Below, piece after piece: positions 239-61,135 of a stretch of DNA of 64,000 nucleotides; the first letter of the stretch is position 1, and every line of letters begins with the position of its first letter. The position numbers and the translations under genes were made by a program. The stretch comes from Macrostomum lignano (Eukaryota), in assembly GCA_002269645.1 (NCBI GenBank), contig NIVC01002506.1:1-64000 (forward strand). The letters are read 5' to 3'. The notes beneath the pieces were generated by a model, which made no database searches, was not told where the DNA came from, and saw only the letters and a program-made list of their open reading frames with translations.

Positions 239-1241
239 ATGACAGATCAGAAACTTAAAAAAATCTACTACAGCGACAAAGGATTCTTTGTAGGCAAAAA
301 ATGCCGTTAGTAAACTCATGAGCTAAGTAAGGAACCAAAAGCTACAGTAGAAAAATGGCTCTCTAAGCAGGCTGTCTTTCAAGTCTATTTCCACCAGTAA
401 AATTTGAAAGGCCCCATTTCAGTATTTATAAACCTAATGAGGCGCACCAAGCAGATCTTCTGTTTCTCCCCAATGACTCAGGCTACAAGTATGCTCTTAC
501 AATTATTGACATTGCTTCCAGATATAAGGAAGCTCGCCCACTCAAGACGAAGAAGTCAGAGGTTGTTGCCACGCACTCCAAGATATTTATAAAAACTCAC
601 CCCTAGTTACCCTGAAATCTTTATGACGACCCGGGTAAGGAATTCATGGGTGCAGTCAAATCCCTTATGGAAAAAAATACAAGATTCGCTATGGCAGAAC
701 AAACTTGCACAGAGACCAGGCTTTTGTGGAAGATTCAATCTTAACTCTAGCCAAGAGACTATTCACTAAGCAGACAGCTGAAGAACTCAAACTGAGTGGG
801 CAGTACTATACAAGTGGACAGAAAGACTCCCCGCTGTTATAGAGCAACTGAACAATGAAGTCACACGCTGACTGGATTGAAACCATCCCATGCAATTAAA
901 CAAGACACTGTCGAACTTAAGCATCTCATAGAACAGACAACAACACTACAACCCACACAAACACACAACAAAACACTCGAACACCTAAGCTTCCAGGAGT
1001 TGAATCACCATACATACTGACAAACTCTGAGTTTCTACGCTTTTTATATCTACCTGGAGAGCTAGAGAAGGACACCAAAAGAAAGCTACAGATCCATACT
1101 TCAGCCTTGATGTACATAAAAAAGACCTCCGACTCCGGTGACTATTACTTTTTATCTCAGGCCTTTAACCCTAAATCCCCCACGCGGTCATTCACTAGAG
1201 CTGAACTCCTAGTGATACCAGCTGACACAGAAATTAATTAA
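239..1241 (+). pseudogene. int: Polinton retroviral-like (rve) integrase, frameshifted
   Basis: Reading across shifts gives HQADLLFL, MTDPGKEF and QAFVE(R)FNLTL (D-D-E triad), plus the C-terminal ATDPYFS...RSFTRAELL. Confidence 0.9.
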
Positions 1242-1831: not shown

Positions 1832-4800
1832 ATGCCAAAAGCCAATCCAGCAAGAGATTTAGTCAACAAATATTTTCAAAAGGCGTCTCATTTCAAGACA
1901 AAAGTAATTTACTAAGAGAAGCATGTAAACAAAAGTTTAACACCGACCCTGGTCACCTGGGAAGCTATGAAAAACAGTTGGAAATCATCAAAATTAGAAT
2001 ATGCGCCTATAAAAAATCCTGCAAAGGAACACCAAGAGAGGAGTCGCAACTTAGTTAACAAATACGAAACTCTCACTGGTGAAAAGCAAAGTACCCACAA
2101 AAGTAAGCAGGAACAAGAGAAATTAGAGCAATTAATCCATTTAAAAGAGTCGGAGCTTGCCATTGAAGAGATTAATTTTGCACAGAGGAAGTTTACAGAA
2201 CATTACATAGAGTACACAATCCCAATTAAGGATACCACCGCAAACATCTACGACTATAAAGACAGCATCCAATCAGTTGTTGATCACACACTCAAAACAC
2301 GCAAGACTTTAAACTACAGATATCATTCAAGATTGCGTTTTATATGCCTGCAAAACCCACAGAGCATCTCGAGTATTACATGACAACAAAGGCAAAGCCA
2401 TTCACCCCTACAGACACACTGGATCCTTTCCTTCAAGATGTCAATAAGAAAATTGAAGCGTTTACATCCAGAGGTTCCGATGGGTCGTGGAGGGATTCAA
2501 AGAGCGACTGTCATGGTCATGAAATATGACCCACTTAAAGCCTCCTCTTATATAGAGCTCCGCATAAGCTAGCCGGCAAAAAAGCTTGCATAAATGTTAA
2601 AAATAAAGACAATTGCTGTGCTCTATGGGCAGTTCTTTCTGCACTTCTTCATGATAGTGTCCTCACCACCCCGAAAGAACCTCAAATTATCAAAATTATT
2701 TCAACTACTATCTCATTGAATGCGAAAAGAAGGGAATCAGGTTTGACAAAGGAGGCTTGGCGATCTCTCAGATCCCAAAGCTAGAAGAAGTGTTTAATAA
2801 CAAAATTAGAATCACAGTCTTTGAGTGGAGTGAAAAAACTGAGAAAGTTCAACCGGTCAGATGTAGCAAAGACGTTTTAGATCCTGAGGGGAAAAGGCGG
2901 ACTGAAGTGGATCTTCTAGTGATTGGTAATTTACTAGAGGAGGCTCACTATGTTTGGATTAAAGATCTTTCAAGACTCATTCACAAGCAGTTGAATAATC
3001 ATCACGAGGCTGTTGCCATCTGCCGCTTGTGCCTTAAGCATTACAGTGGACCTGAGCGCTTTGAAAAACTAGCAGAGCATGAATTATCATGCGAGGATCA
3101 CCCGACAACTGCTCTCTTCCTTCAGCTGAAGAGAAGTATCTCCGGTTTAAGAACTATCACAAGATGGAGAAGCTCCCATTTGTTGTATATGCTGATTTCG
3201 AATGCTCAATCATGCCAGAAACTCAAAAACAAACTCCAACTCAAAAACATGTCCCCAATTCAGTAGCATATGCCTTTATTAATACAAAAGGACTTGTTGA
3301 GTATAATTATTTCTTTGGAGAGCAGTGTGTGGAGCAGTTTATTGCCAGAATGTTAGAGTTGCAAAAAGTGATTAGCACCCTTCAACCTGTTCCAATAATG
3401 ATGTCTGAGGAGGATGAAAGCAATTTCCTATCAGCAACTCATTGCCACATCTGCAGGAAACATTTAACTTGCACTAATATTAAAAACCCCACCGTTAGGG
3501 ACCACTGCCACTTTACTGGGAAATTTAGAGGTGCAGCGCATAACACCTGTAATCTAAAGCTAAAATCGAACATTCATGATCTAACGATATTTTGTCACAA
3601 CGCAAAGAACTATGACATGCATTTAATAGTTGAAAAAATCGGCATGATTCCAGACATACACCTTGATTGCATCGCAGAGAACAAGGAGAAGTTTAAGTGT
3701 GTTGATATTAAACAGGATAATTCGGTAAGGTAAAATAAGACTGAAGGATTCATATCAATTTCTAGCTGCCAGTCTAGACGAACTAAGCAAGAATCTAAAA
3801 GATGAACAATGTACATATACAAAGATGTTTGCAAGTAAAATTAACAACACTGATGAATCATTTAAACTTTTAAGAAAGAAAGGCTTCTACCCCTATGAAA
3901 ATATTACTGGGTATCACGTATTTGAAGAAGGTTTACCACCACAGGAGAAGTTCTTTTCAAAGCTAACAGACTCTGGAATCTCTGACAAAGACTATGAGCA
4001 CGCGAAGCATGTCTATAATTACTTTAATTGTCAAAACTTCTTCCAGTATCACCTGCTTTACCTCTACACAGATGTGTTTCTGCTGGCCGATGTGTTTGAA
4101 ACCTTCAGATACACCTGGTACACAGCATATGGCCTCGATCCAGCACATTATGTGTCTCTGCCTGCCACTAGCTGGGAATCTTTGCTTAAAATGAAATGGG
4201 ATCAAGATCCAGATTGGTACATTGAACTTCTTACAGACATTGACATGTACAATTTTGTCGAATCGTCAAAGCGAGGGGGAATCTCAATTTGTGTTAACAG
4301 GTATGCAAAAGCAAACAATCCCTACATTGAATCTTACAATAAGGAGCAGCCCTCAAACTACATTACTTACTTGGACGCTAATAATCTCTACGGGTGGGCG
4401 ATGAGTCAAGATCTTCCAGTTAGAGATTTTCGATGGCTACCCTCATCAGAATTCAAATGGGACTTTTCATTGGCTGCCATTTATGAGGTTGATGTTTACA
4501 TTCCACCAGAGCTTCACGACTATTTCTCTGACTTTCCACCCTTCCCAGAGAACATCAAGTGCCCGAAAATAATCGAAACTCCCAATGATAATAATGGAAC
4601 TTGGCACCTGTCAGGAACAGAAAAAGAACATACAGAGAAACTAACACAGAATCTAAACAACAAGACACGTTACAAAATCCATTACAAACTGCTTCAGTAT
4701 TTTATCTCACTTGGTTGCAGGGTCACCAAAGTTCACAGGGCTCTTACATTTACAGAGGAAGCGTGGATGAAACCCTACATTGATAAGAACACCCAGTTTA

Positions 4801-5648
4801 GGACCAAAGCAACCAACGACTTTGACAAGAACCTCTTTAAGTTGGCCAACAACTCTGTCTATGGCAAGACTCTTGAGAATGAGCGGAAAAGAACAAACCT
4901 GAAACTTGTTACCTCATCAGAGCCTGCTGTTATTCAGGCAAATATGTCAAAGCCAACATTCAAAGAACTCCATATCTTTAATAGCTACTTAGGTGTGATC
5001 ATATTTTACAAAACCAAGGTGACGCTGCGCAAGCCGATCTATACAGGTGTCACTGTTCTCGACGAATCAAAACGTCTGATGTACCAGTTCTTCTATGGCA
5101 TGAAGCAGCAGTACAAGGATAAAATGAAACTCTTGTACACTGACACAGACAGTTTTATTATGGACATTCAAACAGAAGACATTTATCAGGACATGCTGCA
5201 GCAAAAAGATTTGTTTGACTTGTCTGAGTATGATGAATCTTGCAGGACACAGAATGGCGATCAAGTGTTTGACGCCACTAACAAGAAAGTGATTGGGAAA
5301 ATGAAGGACGAGATTGCTGGTGACATAATCACTGAATTCATTGGGTTGAGAGCAAAGTCCTATTTTGTAAAATGTGAGTCGTCAGACCCAATTAAAAAAT
5401 CAAAGGGAATTCCGAAACGCGTCGTTAGGAAGGAAATTAATGAAGCTAAATACAGAGACGCCTTGAATTGCAACAAAAAGACATCACATGAGTTCTCAAA
5501 GCTACAATCTAAAAACCATATTATTCACACAATTCAGCAAAAGAAGATTGGACTGTCAGGTGCAGATAACAAGAGATTCATTTTTGATGACAATATTAAC
5601 AGTCTACAGTTCGGGCACTGGATATTAGGTTTAGGAGGTGGAGGTTAG
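1832..5648 (+). pseudogene. polB: Protein-primed family B DNA polymerase with OTU-like and endonuclease VII-like domains. N-terminal half frameshifted, C-terminal 607 aa open
   Basis: Exo I VYADFEC, Exo II HNAKNYD, Pol motifs YLDANNLYGWAM, KLANNSVYGK and YTDTDS. EndoVII-like CHIC...RDHCHFTGKFRGAAHNTCN. OTU-like KDNCCALW...HYVWI. Confidence 0.95.
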
Positions 5649-5693
5649 GTTTAAGAGAAAGTTTAATAAACCTCATAATAGACCTCATAAAAA

Positions 5694-6092
5694 ATACGAC
5701 AAATAACTTTCTTGAAGATTTGGCTAACGAACTGGAATTCCCAAACTTTAGAGGAATATTTATGAGGGACACTCTGCCTGATTTTCCTCTAAGAAAGGAA
5801 TGCGGCATTATGAACTTTGACACCGCCGATAAGCCAGGATTTCATTGGGTTTGCTGGGTGATTGATCCCGATCGCAAGCACAAGTGTTATTACTTCGATA
5901 GCTATGGGACGGCAGTACCAGAAGAGCTAAGAAATTATATGAAGGGAAAAAAATAAGAAAATTTATCGCTCAGACTTTATTCTCCAAGGTCTTAACAGTG
6001 ATATTTGCGGTGAGCTGTGCATGACTGTTTTGTTTGCAATGACCAAAACACGAAAGACCTACAAGGAAATTATTCTTGGCTGTGTTTCATAA
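5694..6092 (+). pseudogene. Adenain-like cysteine protease (start codon altered, frameshift near 5950)
   Basis: Catalytic-type motifs GFHWVCW, YFDSYG and LQGLNSDICG. Confidence 0.9.
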
Positions 6093-6096
6093 AGGT

Positions 6097-6822
6097 TCAT
6101 TGTGCATTTCTCGTCGTCCTTCTTGCCGACTTTCTTTCCGCATAATGTTGAAAAACTTTCTCGAGTTCATTTTTCAGCTGACTCATGTCATCAGTACCGA
6201 CCATGTTCAAGTTCATTCGAACTGATTGTTCATAAAGATCCTGAATGGTTTTGAACTCATCCTCTGAAATGAACTTATCCTCGATTGCCCTTGAAATGTA
6301 CCCTATGATTGATGTGTGCACCCCTTTCTCTTTTACTTGCTTCTCCTGTAGCTGCTTTAGTTTTTTTCGCCTGTTTCGCGCTAATGCTCCAGTAATTGCT
6401 GAAATAAGTCCACATGCAGCACCCACAGAGCCGAGAGGGATTGCGATTGGGGCTGTGATGACTGGCAACGTTGAGACAGCTGCAGCAGATCCAGATAGAA
6501 CAGACACAGATCCTAGAATCATACTGCTGTAGTCGAAAAATTTACAGTGGCTGTCATAGCGCTTAATTTTCTTTGTGTTGTGAAAAATATTTTTTTCAAG
6601 ATCATCTCGCATTTTTTGAATCTCCACTAGTCGAAACTGCTGAGAGTTACAAGTAATGACGGGGTAAAGTCGGTCTGAATATTGAGGTGCATTCAGATTC
6701 GGTGCATTCAGGCTTGGTGCCAGGTTTTGTGTGTTCGAATTCGGTGCCATTGAGTTTGGTGCTGTCGGAATTTTAGGTTCAGCGTATTGAGACTGATCGT
6801 ATAGAGAATTTTGTTGGGCCAT
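6097..6822 (-). CDS. Polinton membrane-hairpin protein (241 aa) with PTAP and LYPVI motifs
   Basis: Intact ORF with a ~47-aa hydrophobic hairpin MILGSVSV...AITGAL flanked by charged helices. Homologues at 14681 and 33911. Confidence 0.85.
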   Translation of the reverse strand: MAQQNSLYDQSQYAEPKIPTAPNSMAPNSNTQNLAPSLNAPNLNAPQYSDRLYPVITCNSQQFRLVEIQKMRDDLEKNIFHNTKKIKRYDSHCKFFDYSSMILGSVSVLSGSAAAVSTLPVITAPIAIPLGSVGAACGLISAITGALARNRRKKLKQLQEKQVKEKGVHTSIIGYISRAIEDKFISEDEFKTIQDLYEQSVRMNLNMVGTDDMSQLKNELEKVFQHYAERKSARRTTRNAQ

Positions 6823-6912: not shown

Positions 6913-7728
6913 CTAGGCGGCTCTCGTGACGCCGGAGGATCGCGAGTCCAGCAGGCAGCGGCTGGGCGGCTGACGTTTGAGAGCGTGCCGGATTACTCCG
7001 GCGGGGTCCAGAGCTCCTTGTACTCGATCTGCAGTAATGACCGGACGAGCAGTAGATTCTGCTTCATCAATAGCAATACGAGTATCACGAAGATTGAGTG
7101 TTCTCTCCAGACGATTAAGCCTCCTTATTATTTTACCCCAAGAGCTATACATTCCGTTTAGATAGCTACTGTGTGATACATCGTTTCTCTCTAATGCATC
7201 AAGTCTTTCTTTAATTCTATCATGCAACGATATTGACTGGTTCATGAACTCTTGTAAATTCCTCACTTTAACTGTGTTGGTTGCGACGTTTTCTTTAATT
7301 CTTTCATGCAATGCTGTTGATTGGTTCATGAACTCTTCTAAATTATTTACTTTAGCTGTGTTTGTGAAAACTCCTCCTTCAAGAATACGCATCCGTCTAT
7401 CAGTGGAATTTCCCAGAAGATTAACTGATGATCTCAAGCCGTTGATTAGCGAGACTATCGAAGTTATTTCTGACCTTAGTTCATTAGTTGCGTTTAACAA
7501 CGGCGCATAAAGCTTATCACTTTCAAACTTCTGCCTAGCTACTTTAAGCCTGAGATCTTCCATGTTGATTTGCAACTGGTGCATGGAGCGCTCTAGGGCT
7601 TTCAGTCTGTTTTTATTCAGTTTGATCTCTGGGATCTCTTCATCAGTGTTAATGTAGCGCTTGTCAAGGAAGGAAGTTGTGAGAGTGCTGTTGCCTGTAG
7701 TTGACTCACCTGCAAAATTAATAGACAT
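6913..7728 (-). CDS. Coiled-coil protein, putative fibre/spike (271 aa)
   Basis: Intact ORF with heptad pattern and two 28-aa repeats. Homologues at 13922 and 33035. The fibre role is inferred only. Confidence 0.7.
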   Translation of the reverse strand: MSINFAGESTTGNSTLTTSFLDKRYINTDEEIPEIKLNKNRLKALERSMHQLQINMEDLRLKVARQKFESDKLYAPLLNATNELRSEITSIVSLINGLRSSVNLLGNSTDRRMRILEGGVFTNTAKVNNLEEFMNQSTALHERIKENVATNTVKVRNLQEFMNQSISLHDRIKERLDALERNDVSHSSYLNGMYSSWGKIIRRLNRLERTLNLRDTRIAIDEAESTARPVITADRVQGALDPAGVIRHALKRQPPSRCLLDSRSSGVTRAA

Positions 7729-7744: not shown

Positions 7745-8544
7745 TTAAATTAAAATTCTTTTCTCCTTATTAATCATGACAAACTGATAAGGTTGGTTCC
7801 ACTTTTCATAGCATATGTTAACAAATTCCTCCTGTGATATTGTTCTGTTAGAGTTCTTAGCTGGATATGTAATGTGAGCTGGGGCAATGACCTCATTATA
7901 AAATCGTTTCAGTCGATCTTGTGGTATGGTTGGGAAAAGGAGAATCAAATTACAGTTACCTCTAATTGTTTTATTTGGCAGTTCAAACCAGTTTTGGGCA
8001 ATGTAAATAACATTGCAATTATTATGTCTACCCCGGGTGAAATAATTTTCTATCTGTTTCTGGGGACCTGTCATGCAGTCATCGAAGACAATCAGGTGCT
8101 TTCTCCCCTTTTCTAGTTCATCAGGTTGAGGTAAGAGTTTAGTTTTAGGATCTATCTGTGGATCTCCATAAGTGAAAACTTTAATGTTTTGCCATTTTTC
8201 ATTGTCTGGGATGTGCTTTGCGTATTCAGTGGCTAAACTTCCGGGTTGCTGTTGAGGTCTTTTTGATGTCTAAAACATTGAATAATATCTTCCTTGTTGA
8301 GTTTGTTCTGTAGGCCCGCTACTAGCATTTTATACTCATCTTGATACAGAGTGGGTGAATAGATATGTAGTGTGTCATAATCGAGGAATCCAGGTCTGAG
8401 GAGCATGTTAAAAACTCTGAAGGTTTTCCCTGACCCAGATGAGCCAACAACAATGCATCGGAAGTGCCCTGGAATTATCTCGTTGTGAGCAAATTTTATC
8501 TGATTGCGTGTCCAGTGGGGATGAAAGTCGTTTGCGAAGTCCAT
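7745..8544 (-). pseudogene. A32/FtsK-like genome packaging ATPase (1-nt frameshift near 8237)
   Basis: Walker A GSSGSGKT, Walker B LIVFDD, motif TRGRHNNCNVIYIAQ. Confidence 0.92.
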
Positions 8545-8741: not shown

Positions 8742-9122
8742 TTAGTCAAATTTAAAACCGCCTCCTTTCTTATATTCAGCTCTCATCTTTGCGTAGATGG
8801 CTGGATCGACACTATCTGCACTCGGTGCAAGGGGTTGAATATCTGGTATTGATTTCCGGGTTTCATTAACCGTATCCTTTATCTTTTTGGCTGCTGTGGC
8901 TACACTGCCAGCCGCTTCGGCAACGTTCTTGATGTTCTCTTTGTTCTCTCCAATGACCTTAAAAATCTTGGCCCCCTGAGCGATCAAATCGGCAAGGCCA
9001 TTCCCAGAGCGTTCTTTTCTTATATAGTGGCCTGCAGGGAAAAGTCCAGATCCGCGTTTAATGAGATTAAGTTCCTCTTTGTCATAGTATTTGTCAATGT
9101 CTTTTTCGAAAATAATTGGCAT
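8742..9122 (-). CDS. Small core-like protein with G-x-G motifs (pVI-like by inference)
   Basis: Probable start AAAAAGATG (MPIIF) at 9122. Motifs RGSGL, SGNGLADLI and C-terminal KKGGGFKFD. Homologous to 60728-61125. Confidence 0.7.
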   Translation of the reverse strand: MPIIFEKDIDKYYDKEELNLIKRGSGLFPAGHYIRKERSGNGLADLIAQGAKIFKVIGENKENIKNVAEAAGSVATAAKKIKDTVNETRKSIPDIQPLAPSADSVDPAIYAKMRAEYKKGGGFKFD

Positions 9123-10356: not shown

Positions 10357-11643
10357 ATGAACGACCCACTGACACCAGTTTTTTACAAAATGAACAAGCC
10401 TATTTTGAGTGATGATAGCACAATCAAAGCGACTCAGGTAAGAGTTCCCAGTCAGGAAAATCAGAATGAAACTAATCTTGGTCCTGGTCAAACACTGACA
10501 TTTACATACAATAGATGTTCATCTTTGGTTAGTGTGCACAGTCTTAAGAGCGGATTCCATATGACATTTCAATTCAAGACAAAGGGTGGTGCGGATGCGG
10601 CTCGTGCTAACGTTGACAAGCATGATGCGGATGTGGCTCTGATCAGCAACTTTTGGGCGTACATGTTCAAGGAGTTTAGTGTATCGAATGGGAGCACAGA
10701 GTTGGAGCGAATCGCCAACTTTGGAATTGTCTATGACGCTTATTTTTTGATTGAGAATCCTGATTTTATTCAATTGGGAAGTGGTGCGGGTTTTATTGCA
10801 GACGAAAAAGAAGGAGATATCAATGACAGTGGTTATAAAAATAGGAAGAAGAGATACAACTATGCATTGCAAGATGCTGATGATGCTGCTAAGAACCCGC
10901 AGTATCGGTCTGTTGATGTATTTGTACCATTGAGATTCATGAGTGGATTCTGTAATACATTTAATCGACTGACTAGTAACTTTAGCTACACCTTTAGGAT
11001 GACTAGAGATGATCGCAGTAGAGTGTTGTGGACTGGGGCGGACCACACAAGGATGGAGGTGAAGCTAACCGGAATCGAGCTGTATTTGGAAGTCATTGAG
11101 CCAAAGACTGCACTAAAAGCGGATTATCTCAAGGCAATAGAGAAGGACATTGATGTTGCATACACAGCCTACATGTGTCGAGATGAGCGAAACGAAACTA
11201 GAACAAACATCTGCATTAAAGAGGGATCATGCAGCAATCCAAGGTATATTATTATTAACATGAGAAACCAAAATAGCATTATACGCTACATGCATGGAGA
11301 CGTGCGGTCCATTCAGCATGAAATCAGTGATAATCTTTACCCTGCACTGCCACAAAATGGAGATTTCAGTCAGAACAAGATTAGCAAATTTTACAGCGAG
11401 TTGGTCGACTTGGCTGTGAAAGAGAACAATGGAATTGCTATCACTGCTCTTCAATATGGAACTCTATATCCGATGTTTGGCGCTGATGTGTCTGCCAGAC
11501 AAATGCCTACTGATAACAGCCCTGTGAATATCGTGACTAACATTGAGAGGACTGTCGCAACACCCGTGGACTTGTACATTATCTATGCATTTGAGAGGAA
11601 GGTGAAGCTTAACATGATCAACAATTCATCCAGTAAAGTTTAA
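10357..11643 (+). CDS. Major capsid protein (double jelly-roll type), intact, 428 aa
   Basis: Size, position next to penton, and Polinton-MCP-like motifs SDDSTIK, NFWAYMF..FSV, VPLRFMSGF, PRYIII, LYP and YPMFGADVS. Confidence 0.85.
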   Translation: MNDPLTPVFYKMNKPILSDDSTIKATQVRVPSQENQNETNLGPGQTLTFTYNRCSSLVSVHSLKSGFHMTFQFKTKGGADAARANVDKHDADVALISNFWAYMFKEFSVSNGSTELERIANFGIVYDAYFLIENPDFIQLGSGAGFIADEKEGDINDSGYKNRKKRYNYALQDADDAAKNPQYRSVDVFVPLRFMSGFCNTFNRLTSNFSYTFRMTRDDRSRVLWTGADHTRMEVKLTGIELYLEVIEPKTALKADYLKAIEKDIDVAYTAYMCRDERNETRTNICIKEGSCSNPRYIIINMRNQNSIIRYMHGDVRSIQHEISDNLYPALPQNGDFSQNKISKFYSELVDLAVKENNGIAITALQYGTLYPMFGADVSARQMPTDNSPVNIVTNIERTVATPVDLYIIYAFERKVKLNMINNSSSKV

Positions 11644-11663: not shown

Positions 11664-12527
11664 ATGGAAGCTATAGCCGAAAGACTAAACAACATTGTTT
11701 CACACTCCAAGGAGAGCATTCCTATTACAATAACTGGTCGAATTAATGACTCAAACGGGATGTTTGTTGAAAAATTAGAGCAGGCGATTCGCCTGGATCC
11801 AGGCGCTAATTACCATGTCTATCTTAACGACTTCACTGGTTGGTCAAACGTTCCTAATGTGATGGCAGCAAATAATAAGTTTTATTACAAATGGAAAGGT
11901 GCAGCAGCAGACCCTGTGGTATTCCATGTGAGCACGCAAAGTGTGGATACCTACAATTACTTTCTAGAAAACGTCTTTACTAAAAGAGGCCATTTTGAGA
12001 CACCTGATGCGAGTAAGCCAGATAAAAAACTGTTTCCTGTCAAACTAGCCTATGATCTCACTGTAATGAGAGTGGTCATGCAAGTTCACAAAGATGTGGA
12101 GGTTGAGTTTAAAGATAACACTTGGTATAGGGAATTAGGATTCGAGAAGAAAGTTTATAAGGCAGAATCCGCGGCGCGGACCGCCACTCAAGCGTCGGGG
12201 GCCGTTAGCATGGCCCGGGAAAGTGTACGCGGTTTGTTCTTAGCACCCAATATTGCAGACATTGTAAAGGGTTTGAATATTCAAATCAGAAGCAATCTCA
12301 GTCTTGATTGGGTATTTAAGGGAAAGCGAACTAATATTTTGTACAACATCTCCGACTTTGTTGCTGGAGGACAGATGCTGGTAGAGAAACCAAATCCAGT
12401 GAAAAGAGTTGTATTGAGTAATAAGGAGATTCACGAGATTGTGCTACAGTTTGAGACTGAAGATGGGGTGGGCGTTGATTTTAATGGGGAAGAGTTTGTA
12501 TTGACGTTGATCATTGAGAGAATGTAA
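11664..12527 (+). CDS. Minor capsid protein (penton), intact, 287 aa
   Basis: Motifs SNVPNV...NNKFYY, ELGF, VEKPNP and VDFNGEEFVLTL, directly downstream of MCP. Confidence 0.82.
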   Translation: MEAIAERLNNIVSHSKESIPITITGRINDSNGMFVEKLEQAIRLDPGANYHVYLNDFTGWSNVPNVMAANNKFYYKWKGAAADPVVFHVSTQSVDTYNYFLENVFTKRGHFETPDASKPDKKLFPVKLAYDLTVMRVVMQVHKDVEVEFKDNTWYRELGFEKKVYKAESAARTATQASGAVSMARESVRGLFLAPNIADIVKGLNIQIRSNLSLDWVFKGKRTNILYNISDFVAGGQMLVEKPNPVKRVVLSNKEIHEIVLQFETEDGVGVDFNGEEFVLTLIIERM

Positions 12528-14680: not shown

Positions 14681-15346
14681 ATGGATGCTCAAAATTCTCT
14701 TTATGATCCGAACGCTCCCACAACACTCACAGCTCTCACAGCACCTAGTGCACCCCAATATGAGAAACAAAAACTCTACCCTGTCATTACTTGTAACTCT
14801 CAACAGTTTCGACTGGTGGAGATTCAAAAAATGCGCGATGATCTTGAAAAAAATATTTTCCACAACACAAAGAAAGTTAAGCGCTATGACAACCACTGTA
14901 AATTTTTCGACTACAGCAATATGATTCTAGGATCTGTGTCTGTTCTAACAGGTTCAGCAGCTGCAGCCTCAGTGTTGCCAGCCATCACAGTCCCAATTGC
15001 AATTCCACTTGGCTCAGTAGGTGCTGCATGTGGACTTATTTCAGCAATTACTGAAGCAGTAGCGCGAAACAGGCGAAAAAAACTAAAGCAGCTACAGGAG
15101 AAGCAAGTAAAAGAGAAAGGGGTGCACACTTCAATCATAGGGTACATTTTAAGGGCAATCGAGGATAAGTTCATTTCAGAGGATGAGTTCAAAACCATTC
15201 AGGATCTTTATGAACAATCAATTCGAATGAACTTGAACATGGTCGGTACTGATGACATGAGTCAGCTGAAAAATGAACTCGAGAAAGTTTTTCAACATTA
15301 TGCGGAAAGAAAGTCGGCAAGAAGGACAACGAGAAATGCACAATGA
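14681..15346 (+). CDS. Membrane-hairpin protein, copy 2 (221 aa) with PSAP and LYPVI
   Basis: Intact ORF homologous to 6097-6822. Confidence 0.85.
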   Translation: MDAQNSLYDPNAPTTLTALTAPSAPQYEKQKLYPVITCNSQQFRLVEIQKMRDDLEKNIFHNTKKVKRYDNHCKFFDYSNMILGSVSVLTGSAAAASVLPAITVPIAIPLGSVGAACGLISAITEAVARNRRKKLKQLQEKQVKEKGVHTSIIGYILRAIEDKFISEDEFKTIQDLYEQSIRMNLNMVGTDDMSQLKNELEKVFQHYAERKSARRTTRNAQ

Positions 15347-15502
15347 ACCCCTATGAAACACAGCCAAGAATAATTTCCTTGTAGGTCTTGACTTACTTGA
15401 ATTAGCTGCAGGGGGCGTCCGGCGGATGCAGCGGGGAGGCGGAGGAGACCGCCCATTCCGCTAGCCCCTGGCGACCAATGACTTCCGTTGAAGTGAAGTC
15501 GC

Positions 15503-18500
15503 TCAGGGGACCCGTCGGTCTCGCCTGCAGCGCGATCCTCCTCACCGACAGTGGGGAAGAAATCGGCTTGTCCCGTGTCCCTGAGGTACCGGGCGAGCAG
15601 CGGGATGCTCTCGGGCCTGGCAACGTCGGAGAGAACCGGGTTTGGCCCGAGGTGAGTGAGCCTGGCCCTGGTGAAAACCGGGCAGTGGCAGATTAAATGC
15701 TCGGCGTTTTCACTGCCTGAGCGGCAGAAGGGGCACCGCTCCTCGGGTACCTGGCCCTGAAGGAAGCGGTGGCGAGAGAAGCAGCCATGCCCGGAGAGGG
15801 CCATGCTAACTGCTCTGAGGTCTCTGCGGTTGAGCCTGAGGAGGGCTCTACGCAGGAGAGGGGAGGGGCAGGGGACGGCCGCCCGGGATTGCCTACAATT
15901 CCGGGTGTCGTGCCACCTGCGGAGATGCTCGGAGTCAGCCCAGCGCTTAACGCGGGAGTTGATCACCGAGGCGGGGATGGGGGCCCCCGGGCCCGGCCCC
16001 AGCAGCGCGCCGGCGGAGCCAGCCTTGGCCAGCAGGTCGGCGCGCTCGTTGCCGAGGAAACCGGCGTGGCCCGAGATCCATCTGAGCTCTACCTGGTTGC
16101 CTAGCGCAAGCCCGTTGAGCTGGGTGTTTCAGTCCAGGACGGACCTGGAGCTGGTGGTGCAGCGGCAGAGGGCCCGAAGGGCTGCTTGGCTGTCAGAGTG
16201 AAAAATAAATTTCCGACCGCTAAGCTGCCTTCGGCGCAGTTCTGCCGCGCAGGAGCTGATGGCAAGCACTTCGCTCTGAAAAACACTGGAGTTGAGCCCA
16301 GTGTGCTGGGAGTAGCTCCACGCCACTTCTCCCTTGAAGAAGACGCACGCTCCGAAGCCTGAAAGACCATGCTTCATAGAGCCGTCAGTGTAACAGTGGA
16401 CTTCAGAATCGCTCCAGCTGTCACTCGCCTCATGTCGAGGCTGAATAGTGACCTTATACCTTTGGCTCAGGAGAAGGGTGGCTGGGATCGAGTCCGAGAG
16501 GATGTTGAGCCCGCCACATTCTTCTAGAGCCTTGAGGCAGAGGTCAGAGTGCGGAATAAGCGACCGCTTCTTAAAGGCCCGCACTTTCTTGAAGGCCACC
16601 CCAGCATCCAGAAGACGCCGGGTGTTCTTCGCCGCCTCTCCTTTGATATAAATATCCAGAGGAGGGGTGCAGAGGAAGGCATTCATGCCTTCAAAAGGAG
16701 TAGAGGGTGGAGCGCCCATAGTCATGCGGCAGGCTCTGCCCTGGATTTTGTAGAGAGCGTCGAGGTTACTCTTGACGCCCAGACCGCTAGCCCACACGAG
16801 GCTGGCGTAACTGATCGAGGGGCGGATGATTGCAGTGTAAATCCACCACAGCTTCCTGGGGGTGAGCCCCAGGTGGTGCCCACGGCGCGCCTGATCTGAG
16901 CCAGGACAGCCAGGGCTTTTTTGGCTTTAGTTTGAATGTGCGGAGTCCAGTTGAGCCTGTGGTCCAGAGTGAGGCCCAGGCAGCGGACCTGCTTCTCCAT
17001 GGAAATGTTCTTTCCATAGAGGGTGAGGGGCTTAATGGTCCAGAGCAGTTTGTTGGTAAACATGACCGCTGTGGTTTTTGACTCTGAGAGTCTAAGACCA
17101 CATTGGTTTGCCCAACGCTCCGCTCGTCCCAGAAAGCCCTGCAGAAGATTTCTGATGGTGTCAACCGAGGGGCCCGCGCAGATCGCGGTCACGTCATCGG
17201 CATAGCCCACCTTGAGAATGGGGTCGTGGAGATCACTGCAAAGCAGCTCATCCATGACCATGTTCCAGAGAACGGGGGTGAGAACTCCGCCCTGGGGGCC
17301 CCCTTTTTGGACAGGCGCCGAAAGAGAGCTGCCGTTCAGGTGGGCCACAACAGTGCGGTTCCGGATCATCAACATGATCCACCGGACAAGGTGAGGGTGC
17401 GTGGCCCTGGATTCCAGGGCTCTGCAAAAGGCCTCGAAGATGACGTTGTCGAAGGCCCCCTCAATGTCCAGAGAAAGCGAGAGGGCAAAGCCGCTGCCAA
17501 GAACGGCCCTCTTTAGGAAGTCAACAATGACATGGAGGGCACTCTCGGTAGACCTGCCCGCGCGGAAGGCGTGCTGGTTCTGCGAGAGTGGGAAGCGCTT
17601 CAATTCGACTGAAAGTAGGCGCCAGAGCACCAGTCTCTCGAGGAGCTTGAGGCAGAAAGAAGTGAGGCTGATAGGCCTGAAGGCCTTCACCGATTGGCAA
17701 TCGCTCTTTCCAGGCTTGGGGATAAAGACCACCCGGGCCTCTCTCCACGCAACTGGTACATAGCCCAGTTCCACACAAGCTCGGAGGAGACGACAGAGGA
17801 GGTCCAGAAAGCGGTGGCTTTTCGCCGCCTCGTGCAAGAACGCTGGGTAGATGCCGTCGGGCCCAGGCGCCTTGAACGGGTTAAAGGACCTTGCCGCTCT
17901 AATAATGCGGTCTTTGGTGATTATATACTTTGCTAGGCCTTGCCCTCCCACTGTGTGGTCAGGCGGGCCCTGCTGAGTCGGAGATTTAGGGAAGAAACTG
18001 TTGAGCATTAGCTCCAGAGTCTCTTCAGAGCTCCCTGTGACCGAGCCGTCAGGTCTCTTTACAACAGAGAGTTTAGAAAAACGGTCATTCGTGAGTGCCT
18101 TAACCACGCGGGCTACGGGGCGAGAGCCCTCAAGCCCTTCGCAGTATTGGCGCCACTTGGCCGTCTTGGCCCTTCTGACTTGGCCCTTAAACTCGTGGAT
18201 CGCACGGGTATAGGCCTCTCTGTCAGATGGGTCATTGGTTTTGAGCGCTCGCCTTTGGAGGGTCCTGGCTCGGCGCCGAAGGGCCCCGAGCTCTGGGTTC
18301 CACCAGGGAGCAGATTTCTTGCCTTTATAGGCTTTTAGAGGGCAGGCTGCTTCAAAGGCAGTGGTGATCGCCCAACTCAGGGAGGAGGCGAGATCATCCA
18401 CCACCTGGCAGTCAGAGAGGTCACTGGGGGGGGGTCAAGATCCCGAAGGCCGCGGCTCAGCTTCGAGCCAAAGGCGGCCCAATCGGTGTTCCTGACGTTC

Positions 18501-19207
18501 CGACTCCAAGTGACCTTAGGCTTTTGCTTGATCGGCCCAATGCAAAAGCGGATAAAGCGGTAGTCCGAGAGCGAGTCCTCGTCCCACACTCGCCAGCCCG
18601 TAACTGCGGAAAGCAGTCCGGGTGAGGCGATGGTGGTGTCGATGACTTCGGCCCACCGCCCATTATTGAACGTTGGTGCATTGCCCACGTTACAGAAATT
18701 GAGGTTAGTGCTGCTGACATAGGCCAGCAGCTCCTCGCCTCTGCTATTGATGTTTTTGCTGCCCCAATGCAGGTGGTGTGCGTTCACATCCCCTGCAATG
18801 AGCAGCTCGAACCGATGGGACGCAGCATAGTCAATAAGGTTGACTAGCGCGTCGCAGACAACTGGGGCATCGCCCGGGAAATAGGCAGATGCTACCAGCA
18901 CAGATTTATTGGGAATGAGGTTATTGATTTGAACAACACAGATGTCCCCAGACGAGAGATCAGGTCTCATCCATGCCTCAAAAGCTTTCGCAGCAAAGAC
19001 CAGAGATCTTGGGCGAGGCTGAGAGCCCGCCATGCAAAAACAGTGGTAGCCAGATGGCACATTATTTGGCTTACCTTTAGTCATCCGGGGCTCCTGTACG
19101 AAGACCAGGCCCGGAAGCTGTTGCTCTGCCGTGAGCATCAGGTTGACCGACGCCGCCACGCAGTGCTGGGTGTTGATCTGCAGACACCAGGTAGTCGCTG
19201 GCATCAT
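15503..19207 (-). pseudogene. ORF2 of element 1 (APE-RT-RNase H-CCHC), at least three frameshifts
   Basis: APE QINTQH, VQEP, GDVNAHH. RT PGPDGI, LDIEGAFDN, PQGGVL, GYADD. RNase H YTDGS, HSDSQAA. C-terminal CPFC...H...C. Shifts near 18430, 16860 and 16100. Confidence 0.92.
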
Positions 19208-19880
19208 TGGAGATCGGATGTTGCAGCCGCCAGGAGTTCCTCCTCCTCCTCGGCGCTCACCGGCTTCGGGTCGGGGTCGCCGGTATCCATGGGCTCTTCT
19301 TCAGCAAAAGGCCCCCGATTGGCTGGAAGGCAATAGGCAGCGTTCGCCGCCCTTTGCCCACCATCCATGGGGTCCTCCGCCTCAGATTGGCCCAATGCCC
19401 TGGAGCAGCCAGCCGCCTGGGCAGGCGGGTCCGTCTCCAGTCGGCCCTGCCCCGAGGGGTTGGGCCCAGCTGGGACGTCCCCACCCTCCCTGGACGAACT
19501 GGTGCGCCTAGGCGTCCCGGCGACCTCTCGCCTCAGCTGGGCGATTTTGGCGGTGCGGACTGCCTCAGCTGCACGCTGGTACAGGCCGCGCCGCTTGGTG
19601 CTGCGCGCCGGGCGTCGGTCGCCTCCGCCCTCAGCAGCGCGCTCAGCTTTGCCCGCGCGGCCGTGCTGCCGGGCAGGGCGGTTTGCTTTGGCAGTCTGAG
19701 CAGAGGCTTGCGCCTCGGCCCCGGCCGCCTCCGCATCCCGCCCGCCCTGCTCACTGCCACGGGGAGGGTCGGCCTCGTAGGAGCGGATGCGCAGCTTCCA
19801 AAGGCCGACGTTGATGAAGCTGCCGTGTGGATAACGCCTCATCCAGGCGTCCGACAGCCCCAGGATGGCTGTGAAGCCAG
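19204..19880 (-). pseudogene. C-terminal remnant of ORF1 of element 1
   Basis: GC-rich open frame ending in TGA that overlaps the ORF2 ATG. Confidence 0.7.
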
Positions 19881-20433
19881 TTTCCTTGTAGGTCTTTCGT
19901 GTTTTGGTCAATGCATACAAAACAGTCATGCACAGCTCACCGCAAATATCACTGCTAAGACCTTGAAGAATAAAGTTATTTGTTGTCATTTTTTATGAGG
20001 CTTATCAAACTTTTTTCTTAAACCTAAACCCAATCTCCTAATCTCCTAATCTCAACCTCCTAAACCCAACCTCCACCTACTAAACCTAATATCCAGTGCC
20101 CGAACTGTAGACTGTTAATATTGTCATCAAAAATGAATCTCTTGTTATCTGCACCTGACAGTCCAATCTTCTTTTGCTGAATTGTGTGAATAATATGGTT
20201 GTTAGATTGTAGCTTTGAGAACTCATGAGATGTCTTTTTGTTGCAATTCAAGGCGTCTCTGTATTCAGATTCATTAATTTCCTTCCTAACCACACGTTTC
20301 GGAATTCCTTTGATTTTTTGATTGGGTCTGACGACTCACATTTTACAAAATAGGACTTTGCTCTCAACCCAATGAATTCAGTGATTATGTCACCAGCAAT
20401 CTCGTCCTTCATTTTCCCAATCACTTTCTTGTT

Positions 20434-22910: not shown

Positions 22911-25900
22911 GCTTCAGTCAACCTCTTGAAGCACACTGACCAATACGTGCCAGGGATTATCCTTATCCAGGAACCTTGGACGCTTAGGGGCAGCCCCCAA
23001 CATGTCCCCACCGGCTACCAGTGTTTAACCGCTGGTACCCGGGAGGGAAACCTGGCACCAAGATCCTGCATCATGGTGTCCAGTTCTATTAACGCATGGC
23101 TCAGATCGGACCTGTCCACCAGGGACATCTGTGTCATCCAGTCTGAAGACGTACTCCCTGGGAGGACTACCCTCATCGCCTCGGTTTACCTACCGGGCGA
23201 CGGCGAGATGATCCCAGTAGAGCTTGTCACACTGGTCGAGCTCTGCTCCACCAGAAACTATGAGCTGCTCGTGGCAGGTGACATCAATGCCCACCACACC
23301 CACTGGGGCAGTTCTGATATAAACCAGAGAGGTGAAGACTTCCTGGCTTATATTGCTACTACAACCCTTGAGTTCTGTAACTCGGGTAGTACCCCTACCT
23401 TCAATAACGGACGCCGATCGGAGGTGCTGGATGCCACCCTCGCCACGCCCAGGCTCTTCCGGAGCACTAGGGAGTGGCGGGTGCTTCCTGAGGCGTCCCT
23501 CTCCGATCACAAGTTCATCTCTTTCACGCTGGCCAGCGCCCGAAACGCAGGCCAGCTTTACTGGAAACGGAATGCTAGGAATACCGACTGGACCGCCTTC
23601 AGGCTTGCCCTGGAGGAGACCTATCGTTGCACTAGCACTCCAGTCTCCATCAACACCTGCGAAGAAGCAGATGAATTTGCGGCCGCACTTACGGACTCGC
23701 TCACTGCTGCCTTCGAAGCCTCATGCCCACTAAAGGCATATAAAGGCAAACAGTCGGCCCCATGGTGGAACCCGCAGCTTGGCGACCTCCGTCGCAGAGC
23801 CAAAAGGCTTCACCGCAGGGCCCAAAAAACTAAAAACCCGGCCGATCAAACCGCCTACCTGAACTCTATCCACGAGTTCAAGAGGCAGGTTAGGAACGCC
23901 AAAACCAACAAGTGGCGCGAATACTGTGAGGAACTTGAGGGCTCCCGCCCCACCTCCAGAATCGTTAAAGCCCTCACCCTGGACAAAATGTCCAAACTCT
24001 CCTCAGTCAAGAGAGCCGACGGCTCGCTCACTGAGAACCCAGGAGAAACACTGGAAGCGATGCTAACAGCGTTTTTCCCGAACGAGCCAGCCAGGCCCGA
24101 CCCCCCTGACCACTCAGTGGGCGGACACGTACTGGCTGACTCAATCATCACGGAGGACCGCGTTACTAAAGCTGTCTCCTCCTTCAAACCCTTCAAATCC
24201 CCAGGACCGGACGGCGTTGTGCCAGCCTTCCTGCGGGAGGCGGTGAAATGCACCGGTTTCCTGCGGAACTTTTGTCGGCTTCTGAAAGCTTGCATTGTGC
24301 TCGGCTTTGTTCCGAAATCCTGGACCGAGGCCAAGGTGGTCTTTATCCCCAAGCCTGGCCGACCGGACTACCGGTCCATTAAATCCTTCAGACCAATTAG
24401 CCTCACCTCCACATTTGTGAAGCTGTTAGAGAGACTGGTGCTCTGGCGCCTCCTCTCTGTGGAACTGAAGAACAAGCCGCTCAGTGAGAACCAGCATGCC
24501 TTTCAGGCAGGCAGGTCCACGGAGAGCGCGCTTCACGTTCTGGTTGACATGCTGGAGAAAGCCGTTCTTGGTAATGGCTACGCTCTCGCTGTCTTCCTCG
24601 ACATTGTTGGAGCCTTTGATAGTGTCCTCTTTGAGGCTTTTGACAGAGCTCTACGTGCTAGAGGAACCCACTCGCACCTCACCCGGTGGATCATGTATAT
24701 GATCAGCCACCGTACTGCCACCGCACACCTGTTGGGCCACCAACGGACGGTAACCGTCTGCAAAGGCAGCTCCCAGGGCGGTGTCCTCTCTCCAGTTCTC
24801 TGGAACATGGTCATCGATGAGCTCCTCCAGGACAGCCATCTTGACCCCATCCTCAAGGTCGGTTACGCCGATGATGTCACTGCCGTGGCATCCGGACCGT
24901 CACCTGAAACCCTTAGAGATCTTTTGCAAAACTTCATTCGCTCTGCTGAACGTTGGGCGGACAGGTGCGGCCTCAGGCTCTCCGAGACCAAAACTGTCGC
25001 GATCATGTTCACCAGCAGGGTAAACTGGCGTATTCGCCCACTAAAGCTTTACGGGGTGGAAATTCCATCCTGCAAGCAAACCAAGTGTCTCGGCGTTACG
25101 CTGGACCACCGGCTGAGCTGGTCCACCCACGTCCAGGCCAAAACCAAAAAAGCCCTCGCGATTCTTGCGCAGCTGCGCAGAGCCGTCGGCACCACCTGGG
25201 GCCTCACCCCAAAGCGTCTCTGGTGGATCTATACCGCAATGGTCCGACCGGCCGTTACTTACGCCGGCCTGGTCTGGACCAGCGCCTTGCAGATTAAAAC
25301 CTGCCACGAAGCCCTCAAAAAGGTGCAGGGACGTGCGTGCCGCATGATCCTGAATGCCCCGCTCTCTGCTCCCTTTGACGGCCTCAACGCCTTTCTCTGC
25401 CTCCCGCCTCTGGACATCTTTGTCCGTCGCGAGGCTGCTAAAACCACCCACCGGCTCATCGAGGCTGGTGTTAGCTTCAAGCCACAAAGAGCGATGGCGA
25501 AGCGCAAGCTCCTGCCGCACTCTGACCTGTGCCTTAAAGTTCTGGAGGAGAGTGGGAGTGCGGCTGTCCTTTCGGACGCTGAACCGCGCTCCCTCAATCT
25601 CTACCAACGCTTCAAGGTCACGATCCCCTCCAGGGAGAACGCCAACGACAGCTGGGCCCCTCAGGAGGTTCACTGCTTCACTGACGGATCCTCCAAAGAC
25701 GGTTTATCCGGCTTTGGAGTCTGTATCCTTATCAACGGCCGCGTGATTGCTACTCACGCCCAACACACTGGCAGACTCTCCAGCGTCTTCCAGAATGAAG
25801 TCCTTGCCATCAGCTCTTGTGCAGCTGAGCTCCACCGCAAGGACTTCAAGGACAGAAGAATCTTCTTCCACTCTGACAGCCAGGCCGCTTTACAGGCCCT

Positions 25901-29431: not shown

Positions 29432-30109
29432 TTACACAACTTTCCACGCAGGATCACTGGCCAAAATTTCTTCTAGAAACTTCATCTTAGAGTTTAGTTC
29501 CCTAATTGACATTGACACCTGTCTCAAGCCTGGGTAGGTAACAGACAGTTTGTACAGACGAATGTACAAATAGCCAGTTGATTCCTGGATGTTTACATTT
29601 TTACACAAATAGGCGAACCGCACTTTAACATCTTGTCCAAAGTTCTCGGTGCGATAAGTTTTTAGCAGCCGCCCAACTTCGAGAATCCAATGTAGACCTC
29701 CAATTTGAGTCTTCTTGTATTTTGCTAGAGCCGCCTTCACCCTAGTGATGATGTTCTGCTCGCCAGATGGAAGCTGGTGATCAACAGCGTCCATCAGCTG
29801 ATCAGCTAGTGTTACGCGGGATGCGTACAACTTCTCCCTGAATATCTGCAGATCCGCCATCTTCTTCTGCAGAGCCGCCGCCTTCTTCTCTTCGCTACTC
29901 ACATTTTGCGCTTCATTCGCTGCGGCGATTTCATCAGGGGCCATGGCGAAAAACTCGATTGGTAGGTCGCCAGTTTCTAGACCGAAAAAGGTGGTTAGTT
30001 CCTCTCTTCTTCTTGCTTGAAGATGTGACGGAATATCCTGTAAAACTCTTTGTAGCATGGCACAAAGGCCTTGCTTATCTGTCAAATGAAGATTCCACTC
30101 GACTTCCAT
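29432..30109 (-). CDS. Hypothetical helical protein (225 aa) in the A3 left arm
   Basis: Long intact ORF with AAAATG context and normal amino-acid composition. No confident family. Confidence 0.65.
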   Translation of the reverse strand: MEVEWNLHLTDKQGLCAMLQRVLQDIPSHLQARRREELTTFFGLETGDLPIEFFAMAPDEIAAANEAQNVSSEEKKAAALQKKMADLQIFREKLYASRVTLADQLMDAVDHQLPSGEQNIITRVKAALAKYKKTQIGGLHWILEVGRLLKTYRTENFGQDVKVRFAYLCKNVNIQESTGYLYIRLYKLSVTYPGLRQVSMSIRELNSKMKFLEEILASDPAWKVV

Positions 30110-30637: not shown

Positions 30638-31138
30638 TCAAGCGTCTCTCTCTACCCCCATATCTTTCAAAAGTCTTCCCAATTCATTGTTAGGAGCGCA
30701 CAAAATAAACCCTGCTTCTGAGCCTCCGCCCTCTCTCCTCGTGCACCAGCCCTCTCTCCCCAAACAGCCGCCCTCGGCGCCAACCCCCAACCCCAGCTTT
30801 TTCTTACCAAAAATAACAGCTTTAACTAGCTTCCGAGCGATCGATTCCCTCCACCCGCTTGAAGCCCCTATATTGTCGAGTCTCTTAAGCATTTCTTTGT
30901 CCCAGCGATTCTTCTCCTCAGGAAAATCTCTATATTTAACGTCGTGCCACATGCAGACAGAGTCTAGCTCGTTCACAGGCTCATGCCCAGGATTTGGGTT
31001 GTCGTTACCATCCAGCTGTATTTCAAGTGGATTCAAAGGCCCGCAATATTTGTACCCGGGAACTGTCCAGCCTTTGTTTGGATGAGGAAGCTTTTCTATC
31101 AGTCCATGTAAATCTAACTTACCACCAGAGCGTTGCAA
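30638..31138 (-). CDS. Parvovirus-VP1-like phospholipase A2 protein (ATG changed to TTG here)
   Basis: WTVPGYKYCGPLN (Ca-loop-like) and DSVCMWHDVKY (catalytic HD..Y), followed by G-x-G motifs. Confidence 0.85.
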   Translation of the reverse strand: MQRSGGKLDLHGLIEKLPHPNKGWTVPGYKYCGPLNPLEIQLDGNDNPNPGHEPVNELDSVCMWHDVKYRDFPEEKNRWDKEMLKRLDNIGASSGWRESIARKLVKAVIFGKKKLGLGVGAEGGCLGREGWCTRREGGGSEAGFILCAPNNELGRLLKDMGVERDA

Positions 31139-31168
31139 TATTTTATTTTAAATTTTATTTTTAAAAAA

Positions 31169-33910: not shown

Positions 33911-34557
33911 ATTAATGCTCAAAATTCTCTTTATGATCCGAACGCTCCCACAGCACCTAGTGCACCCCAATATGAGAAACAAAAACTCTACCCTGTCATT
34001 ACTTGTAACTCTCAACAACTTCGATTGGTGGAGATTCAAAAAAAGCGAAATGATCTTGAAAAAGAGATTTTTCACAACACAAAGCAAATTAAGCGCTATG
34101 ACAACCACTGTAAATTTTTCGACTACAGCAATATGATTCTAGGATCTGTGTCTGTTCTATCTGGATCTGCTGCAGCTGTCCCAACGTTGCCAGCCATTAC
34201 AATTCCAATCGCAATCCCGCTCGGCTCTGTGGGTGCTGCGTGTGGACTTATTTCAGCAATAACTGGAGCATTAGCGCGAAACAGGTGAAAAAACTAAAGC
34301 AGCTACAGGAGAAACAAGTAAAAGAGAAAGGGGTGCACACATCAATAATAGGGTACATTTCAAGGGCAATCGAGGATAAGTTCATTTCAGAGGATGAGTT
34401 CAAAACCATTCAGGATCTTTATGAACAATCAATTCGAATGAACTTAAACATGGTCGGTACTGATGACATGAGTCAGCTGAGAAATGAACTCGATAACTTT
34501 CTTCAACATTATGCGGAAAGAAATTCGGCAAGAAGGACAACGAGAAATGCACTATGA
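33911..34557 (+). pseudogene. Membrane-hairpin protein copy 3 (ATG lost, frameshifts)
   Basis: DPNAPTAPSAPQY...LYPVIT and the hydrophobic hairpin are retained. Confidence 0.85.
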
Positions 34558-50421: not shown

Positions 50422-50817
50422 TTACAAGAACAGAGGCAACACATGTGCTGCAAAGCGTCGTAGGCAAAAATACGCGCGCCGAAATTCATTCCTTCGACGA
50501 GACCCACAACCAAGAATACGCGTTAAAAAGAATCGAAGGCTACCACCACCAGTCAGTTTGAAATACAAATAAAACAACACCCAAATACCACAATGACCAG
50601 TCCGAGGATCCTGAATAGCAAATCGGCTGTAGGACCAATTTTGAAAATCCCCACATTCTCGCCCCAACCACCGTCTAATATTTTCCGGTGGATTTAAACC
50701 AAGCGAATCAAAATATTTCCCGACTCTTCGTCCACGGCGCCGCCTAACCCGCCTACTACTCACCCAAACTGCAACACAATGCCTACCAGGAAGATTCGAA
50801 GTGTTTGTATTCGCCAC
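50422..50817 (-). pseudogene. Adenain-like protease remnant of a second Polinton type (family B)
   Basis: NTNTSNLPGRHCVA, YFDSLG and IQDPRTGHCG; clearly diverged from the family A protease. Confidence 0.82.
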
Positions 50818-50829
50818 AAAGAAATAGTC

Positions 50830-61125: not shown

Positions 61126-61135
61126 CAATATAAAA

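Follow-up and report, generated by a model that had tools for sequence, protein, structure and literature searches.

A SLATT-like hairpin protein of Macrostomum lignano Polintons with candidate ESCRT-recruiting motifs in its N-terminal tail

Introduction

Few integrated DNA viruses are as common in animals as Polintons, whose exit route from the cell is a standing question. The locus studied here, a stretch of 64,000 nucleotides from Macrostomum lignano (contig NIVC01002506.1, positions 1 to 64,000; referred to as the window), raises this question in a specific form: a first-pass annotation had proposed that a Polinton membrane protein carries ESCRT-type late domains, P[TS]AP followed by LYPxI, and that the element may recruit host ESCRT for egress, vesicle cloaking or membrane remodelling. 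Are these short motifs more than chance words in a variable tail, and if so, which process might they serve?

The gene type as such is known. SLATT genes have been described in Polinton-like viruses and proposed to encode pores (PMC12220804; 10.64898/2026.10.13.758929), with suggested roles in endosome escape, abortive infection or lysis (PMC12220804; 10.64898/2026.10.13.758929; 10.1101/2025.10.09.676808), and the label SLATT appears in the figure keys of another study (10.64898/2026.06.19.733378) as well as in Fig. S2 of PMC8502044, which maps an adintovirus. In the accessible parts of the papers that treat viral SLATT proteins as pores (PMC12220804; 10.64898/2026.10.13.758929), ESCRT motifs go unmentioned, and the terms “ESCRT” and “late domain” are absent from the main text of PMC8502044. 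A Polinton-ESCRT link was not found in a literature search with subscription papers and preprint supplements outside its scope: the listed matches that name both are on other topics, neither “polinton” nor “iridescent virus” occurs in the further matches listed, PMC11161782, PMC11296320 and PMC9683012 held no matching terms, and PMC11131425, in its accessible part, mentions frequent unknown proteins. The ESCRT reading of this gene type appears to be new.

The hairpin gene and its Polinton surroundings

The window contains three copies of the gene. Copy 1 (6097..6822, minus strand) is an unbroken frame of 241 aa and belongs to a long-tail subtype. Reading from its N-terminus, all on the minus strand, it has a TSG101-UEV-type PTAP (6757..6768, residues 19-22), an ALIX-V-type LYPVI (6655..6669, residues 52-56), a first long helix with a conserved FRLxxI start (6532..6651; a coiled region predicted from alignments and the copy 2 model), an uncharged hairpin tip of 51 residues (6379..6531, residues 98-148; predicted either to cross the membrane as two helices or to form a re-entrant hairpin), a basic cluster just past the hairpin (6355..6378, residues 149-156), and a DxxI[ST]xx[ED][FY] helix-loop-helix (6253..6279) that is conserved in 20/27 lineages and whose loop we take to resemble the second half of an EF-hand. 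Copy 2 (14681..15346, plus strand) is an unbroken frame of 221 aa of a short-tail subtype, and direct reading places its PSAP at 14744-14755 and its LYPVI at 14774-14788. Copy 3 (about 33911..34557, plus strand) is broken: there is no ATG at the usual start position, the frame stops at 34286-34288 and the remainder lies in another frame. Its tail carries PTAPSAP (33947-33967) and LYPVI (33986-34000). The first-pass annotation had described the motifs correctly, with PTAP (6768-6757, minus strand), PSAP and PTAPSAP all at exactly these coordinates, and with LYPVI following in all three copies (starting at 6669 on the minus strand, 14774 and 33986); the coiled region and hydrophobic hairpin that it placed after LYPVI correspond to the helix, the 51-residue uncharged stretch and the basic cluster. 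PTAP or PSAP and LYPVI agree with the consensus forms of ELM LIG_PTAP_UEV_1 and LIG_LYPXL_S_1, respectively, and lie in a predicted disordered segment. However, the three copies share 90.6-92.3% DNA identity, and the N-terminal tail holds a short xAP repeat, so that on their own they cannot lift the motifs above chance or shared descent. The window copies therefore count as one data point, and the test was made on distant relatives found with a motif-free profile.

The surrounding genes are those of a Polinton. Integrase fragments of the first Polinton copy (367..1241, plus strand; rve E 2.9e-5 on 367-606) are followed by a polymerase spread over several frames (1967..5648, plus strand), which is without a Pfam match and which, from its motifs, we take to be of the protein-primed family B, and by an adenovirus-type maturation protease (5600..5956, plus strand; Peptidase_C5 E 0.0021, below cut-off). 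On the other side of the hairpin gene lie a coiled-coil, fibre-like ORF (6913..7728, minus strand) and an A32-type packaging ATPase (7745..8544, minus strand), which is split over two frames here and whose sister copy at 32219-33019 matches Pox_A32 (E 0.002). A double jelly-roll major capsid protein (10357..11643, plus strand; DJR-like_dom E 3e-5) and a probable minor capsid protein (11664..12527, plus strand; named by position only, without a Pfam match) complete this copy, and the third copy contributes a parvovirus-type phospholipase A2 ORF (30638..31147, minus strand; Phospholip_A2_4 E 2.7e-13) that resembles the entry protein PLA2X. The Polinton gene set of rve, Pox_A32, DJR and Peptidase_C5 is thus present, although several scores stay below cut-off. 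The window copies are rearranged and interrupted. The order of genes is nearly fixed across 40 loci of the same genome (1.5-kb flanks): the coiled-coil ORF is directly upstream of the hairpin gene in 40/40 and the ATPase upstream in 37/40, and downstream, facing the hairpin gene, are the protease (38/40) and the polymerase (35/40).

Several other features were recorded in the window. The major capsid protein contains LYPAL (11335-11349, plus strand), which is probably a structural part of the jelly-roll; in hepatitis A virus, however, capsid YPXnL motifs are used for ALIX. Short amphipathic Gly/Ala-rich ORFs at 8742-9122 (minus strand) and 60847-61125 (plus strand; Colicin E 0.02) presumably resemble adintovirus genes of the cupiennin or protein VI type, and the third Polinton copy contains a 225-aa ORF of no clear family (29432-30109, minus strand). 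Fragments at 50422-51596 (minus strand) and 60580-64000 belong to at least one further Polinton family, with protease-like and capsid-like frames, a pX-like ORF (61227-61616; Adeno_PX E 0.038) and a different polymerase from 62207. GC-rich non-LTR retrotransposons with endonuclease, RT and RNase H are inserted in the Polinton copies at 15400-20000 and 23073-26558, one 1161-aa frame being unbroken, and a satellite array of ~7.3 kb (52701-60000; 22-23/45-bp unit) adjoins an assembly gap.

Predicted anatomy of the hairpin protein

An AlphaFold2 model of copy 2, built with 60 sequences, reaches a pLDDT of 83. Residues 1-37 have no secondary structure (pLDDT 54-58) and are followed by helices at 38-97, 104-162, 167-188 and 192-220. 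The prediction is thus of an extended helical hairpin whose tip is uncharged and whose N-terminal tail is disordered. The tip comprises 43-52 consecutive uncharged residues and is flanked by basic ones; its hydrophobicity is moderate, both windows reaching a KD of 1.4 in 13/27 lineages, and an N-terminal signal peptide is absent. Taken together, the hydropathy profile, the basic residues beside the tip and the missing signal peptide would place the tail on the cytosolic side; whether the hairpin is re-entrant or consists of two membrane helices, the tail would remain in the cytosol.

Copies elsewhere in the genome

The M. lignano genome contains at least 151 matches to the hairpin protein (150 of 600 candidates scored), and 130 of these were analysed in two sets of 30 and 100. 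Copies counted as unbroken-looking if they had a start and if the frame stayed open for at least 150 codons beyond the core anchor, which was the case in 84/130; the other 46 were frameshifted, stopped, start-less or unanchored and were dropped. Both P[TS]AP and LYPx[ILV] are present in 84/84 unbroken-looking copies, comprising 38 distinct tails, despite indels in the tail, with the reservation that copies were ranked with the full protein, which might favour intact tails to some extent. The number of overlapping P[TS]AP motifs per distinct tail is one (26 tails), two (6), three (3) or four (3), a variation in copy number also seen in HIV PTAP duplications. Among 77 distinct unbroken frames, 41 of the short and 36 of the long subtype, silent and amino-acid changes counted by column in the core amount to 35/34 in one subtype and 36/39 in the other, which means that the core is under purifying selection. 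In the same frames, the 8 P[TS]AP columns, which were chosen as such, are free of amino-acid changes, compared with 40 changes in 81 other columns of the tail, and the LYPxI columns show 3 in 10, the variants observed falling at x. A few tails (L044, L045, L078 and L103) are mixed, suggesting recombination between the subtypes. A second family of the hairpin gene was not found among the best candidates in the genome, and contigs from four runs that may be RNA cover the element as, at most, candidate transcripts.

The local tail is itself an xAP repeat that includes LNAP, PNAP and SMAP, among others. Such a repeat could generate PxAP words unaided, and distant relatives were therefore needed as a test.

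Conservation of the motifs among relatives

Close relatives (n=11, 42-55% identity) carry P[TS]AP in 9/11 cases, and those found by a core-only profile alone in 4/5. In the close clade together with copy 2, P[TS]AP occurs in 10/12 tails vs a shuffle mean of 0.06, at positions -16 to -51 relative to the core, and [LIMV]YPx[LIV] in 11/12 vs 0.06. The YP motif precedes P[TS]AP in P0010 and P0013, and P0010 falls into a clade (support 100/97) with P0003 and P0011, whose motif order is the opposite; the tree was used solely for this swap inside one supported clade, and its change counts were not used.

For the wider family, a profile built without the motif positions found 4509 representatives at E <=0.001, of which the best 150 were taken. 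A set of 274 proteins was reduced to 171 with a full core and a tail of at least 10 residues (103 fragments were dropped), and these fell into 27 single-linkage groups, or lineages, at 50% core identity, each represented by its lowest id. P[TS]AP is present in 13/27 lineage tails vs a shuffle mean of 0.16 (max 3 in 2000), [LIMV]YPx[LIV] in 21/27 vs 0.09 (max 2) and the strict form [LM]YPx[LI] in 9/27 vs 0.05; neither motif occurs outside the tail in any of the 27 representatives. The comparison with shuffled tails that the first-pass annotation had recommended thus comes out clearly in its favour, with both motifs far above expectation in independent lineages. Near-miss words, in contrast, are at chance (P[^TS]AP 1, P[TS][^A]P 2, P[TS]A[^P] 1 and [^P][TS]AP 2, shuffle means 0.7-1.5), and PPxY is near chance as well (2/27 vs 0.45 expected, shuffle max 4). 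Both motifs occur together in 12/27 lineages, their order is split 6:6, and between 9 and 54 residues separate motif and core. Judged from these alignments, the two motifs float in order and spacing, as short linear motifs do.

An alternative is that the motifs have no function of their own or bind something other than ESCRT, P[TS]AP being a by-product of the xAP repeat and YPxPhi being an adaptin YxxPhi signal or a contribution to core packing. The local repeat speaks for this, YPVI does fit YxxPhi, and the strict ALIX-type form is limited to the 9 lineages mentioned above. However, distant lineages carry PSAP without any xAP repeat, P[^TS]AP does not exceed chance, the distance to the core is variable, and Pro follows Tyr in 23/27 YxxPhi words vs 11% Pro in the tails, which points to an ALIX-type rather than an adaptin-type pattern. 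Both the by-product and the adaptin readings are weakened by these observations, and we regard incidental motifs as very improbable. At the level of sequence, the motifs are a real, family-wide feature.

The two motifs are not equally constant. When groups are formed at 40% identity, only 8 remain, with P[TS]AP in 5/8 and the YP motif in 8/8; the largest group (121 proteins) has P[TS]AP in 0/121 and YP motifs in 90; at the level of lineages, 14/27 have no P[TS]AP and 4/27 have neither a YP-type motif nor P[TS]AP. Going by these tallies, P[TS]AP is not universal, and the ALIX-type motif is the more constant of the pair. As to who carries the family, loci of distant relatives were not found in viral or metagenome contigs, phage records gave no match to the hairpin protein and a cluster look-up of relatives returned no informative names; the few recorded taxa in Atlas clusters of look-alikes are Preplasmiviricota, Nucleocytoviricota and Mollusca, to be read as leads only.

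A putative role in ESCRT recruitment and particle release

The host encodes both expected partners: a TSG101 UEV domain (E 6.7e-39; vs human E 1e-44) and an ALIX V domain spread over several exons. In standard numbering, the UEV pocket retains Y68, N69, V89, M95 and V141 and departs from the human one at two positions, with His in place of Y63 and Val in place of F142, which counts against the reading. A complex prediction of the host UEV with the copy 2 tail gave no verdict (score 0.00, with the alignment unused and a tool not validated for peptides). The ESCRT-recruiting role suggested by the first-pass annotation gains from the motif enrichment and from the host UEV and ALIX V domains, and it loses from the lack of P[TS]AP in the 121-member clade; on balance, we consider ESCRT recruitment of some kind very likely.

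What such recruitment would be for is a separate matter. By analogy with NS3 of bluetongue virus, the balance tips slightly towards a membrane adaptor that recruits TSG101 (ESCRT-I) and ALIX for the non-lytic release of particles. The hairpin protein would be anchored in the membrane with its tail in the cytosol, P[TS]AP and YPx[LI] in the tail would gather ESCRT-I (TSG101) and ALIX, and ESCRT-III would cut the bud away from the cytosol, so that non-enveloped particles could leave the cell inside host membrane without lysis, as with NS3. The protein might oligomerise and might touch the capsid through its C-terminal helices, and the separate PLA2 of the element family could serve entry. What the sequences themselves show is the place of the hairpin gene beside the fibre-like and ATPase genes, the selected motifs and the host partner domains.

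By the prevailing view, Polinton particles are assembled in the nucleus, and release from the cell therefore needs an extra step. ESCRT might instead be recruited at an internal membrane, such as the nuclear envelope or a replication compartment, for the crossing of particles or DNA or for sealing. No RNA polymerase was seen among the window Polinton genes, which fits a nuclear cycle, ESCRT-III does act at the nuclear envelope, and a hairpin protein without signal peptide or luminal loop would suit such a site. However, ESCRT-III at the nuclear envelope uses CHMP7/LEM2 more than TSG101, and P[TS]AP points to ESCRT-I at the endosome or plasma membrane, which makes the internal site improbable.

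For the adaptor in particle release, two further points call for caution. In a ranavirus, only 3 of >20 motif-bearing proteins bound the partner, and conservation was not a filter in that part of the study (PMC4880917), so that the presence of a motif alone is weak evidence; moreover, ESCRT motifs also serve the sorting and turnover of the proteins that bear them, which counts against release. The broader proposal, that animal Polintons possess a dedicated ESCRT egress protein, which resembles NS3, uses a SLATT hairpin as its scaffold and also occurs in invertebrate iridoviruses, and spread vesicle-cloaked and quasi-enveloped without lysis, is put forward tentatively and falls somewhat short of an even chance. 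If vesicle-cloaked spread were true, it would explain movement from cell to cell and into the germline while virions are rarely seen, and vesicle fractions would be the places to seek Polinton particles. A family that runs to thousands of members and has motifs of the TSG101 and ALIX types under selection provides a candidate gene, two host partners and a route.

Comparison with known systems

The best matches of the fold search, with both models and over nearly the full length, are three proteins of invertebrate iridoviruses (S6DF61, A0A068QKD3 and A0A5B8RH66; E 7e-7 to 3e-5), of 214-276 aa and 16-21% identity; the rmsd of 12-19 A arises because long helices flex. This likeness invites the view that the hairpin protein is an ESCRT decoy or helper hook: a large DNA virus infecting the same cell would bud through ESCRT, and the protein would either hinder this or exploit it. 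An iridovirus does bud through ESCRT, according to the accessible part of PMC4880917, and many Polinton-like viruses parasitise large viruses; no helper is known for the M. lignano Polinton, and we consider a decoy or hook decidedly improbable. Other fold matches were set aside, namely PDB entries (BAR domains and other long helices; Z <=11.6, below the meaningful level for helical bundles) and PspA/Snf7 (E 0.017-0.05, treated as generic hairpins), and a sequence search of the PDB gave nothing below E 0.02.

The predicted layout of the protein, a helix, two hydrophobic helices and a helical C-terminus, fits that of SLATT domains (PF18160, PF18181, PF14015). NCLDV SLATT proteins come lower in the fold search (E 0.014-0.11), and one relative, P0184, matches SLATT_5 over the whole core with 27.0 bits (cut-off 29.5). 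The Pfam cut-off for SLATT is reached by 0/60 family members and the window protein has no SLATT match; given the layout and these subthreshold scores, we call the protein SLATT-like and do not file it as SLATT. In a rival reading, the ESCRT motifs might sort only the hairpin protein itself, as a SLATT-type pore (for lysis, abortive infection or endosome escape) whose level or location is set through MVBs or which is exported in particle-free exosomes. Cellular cargo is normally sorted via ubiquitin, which speaks against this. So does the pairing of P[TS]AP with YPxL, tandem-repeated, as it is typical of proteins that viruses use for budding (PMC8402826). On the other hand, the SLATT_5 match and the NCLDV fold matches are joined by a weak likeness to RTX and AopB hairpins, by the pores proposed for Polinton-like virus SLATT genes (PMC12220804; 10.64898/2026.10.13.758929), and by the fact that NS3 itself is also a viroporin (PMC7409164). 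Self-sorting as the sole function seems unlikely, and a self-sorting pore and an adaptor for release are compatible, not exclusive.

Animal Polintons have other accessory genes that act on membranes, as the hairpin gene presumably does, namely GasderminX, Cupiennin and PLA2X of adintoviruses (PMC8502044). The C-terminus of GasderminX and of PLA2X is a pX-like domain, which was not seen in the hairpin protein: neither gasdermin nor Adeno_PX matched copies 1 and 2, and both are missing from the 25 families that the listing for 60 members contains. The PLA2 of this element family is a separate ORF, distinct from the hairpin gene.

Retroviral late domains offer the same motif pair (PTAP and YPXnL in HIV p6; PSAP and LYPAL in MLV; for the motif classes see PMC8402826; PMC8728146), and they too are position-independent and often multiple (PMC8402826). 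However, the retroviral motifs are part of the capsid precursor, in viruses with an envelope, whereas those of the Polinton belong to a separate hairpin protein.

The closest functional parallel is NS3 of orbiviruses such as bluetongue virus (PF01616), a protein of a non-enveloped virus that combines late domains with a coiled coil, with basic motifs and with a pair of membrane helices (PMC6949946). The likeness extends to the size (about 220-240 aa), the N-terminal late domains with PSAP, the coiled coil, the basic residues beside two hydrophobic helices and the C-terminus, which would be cytosolic here. The PSAP of bluetongue NS3 binds TSG101, and its loss leaves particles tethered (PMC6949946; PMC7409164). 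Sequence and fold searches do not establish homology: the Pfam Orbi NS3 profile gave E >=0.053 in 2/60 family members, and NS3 appeared at rank 24 of the fold matches with a poor model and not among the 50 rows with a good one. NS3 has a glycosylated loop, whereas the hairpin family has a tight uncharged turn, and copies 1 and 2 lack an NxS/T site. NS3 pairs PSAP with PPxY, whereas the hairpin family pairs P[TS]AP with YPx[LI], and NS3 belongs to an RNA virus, the Polinton being an integrating DNA virus. The comparison would give viral SLATT-like proteins a role other than that of a pore, and it suggests a DNA-virus parallel to orbivirus NS3.
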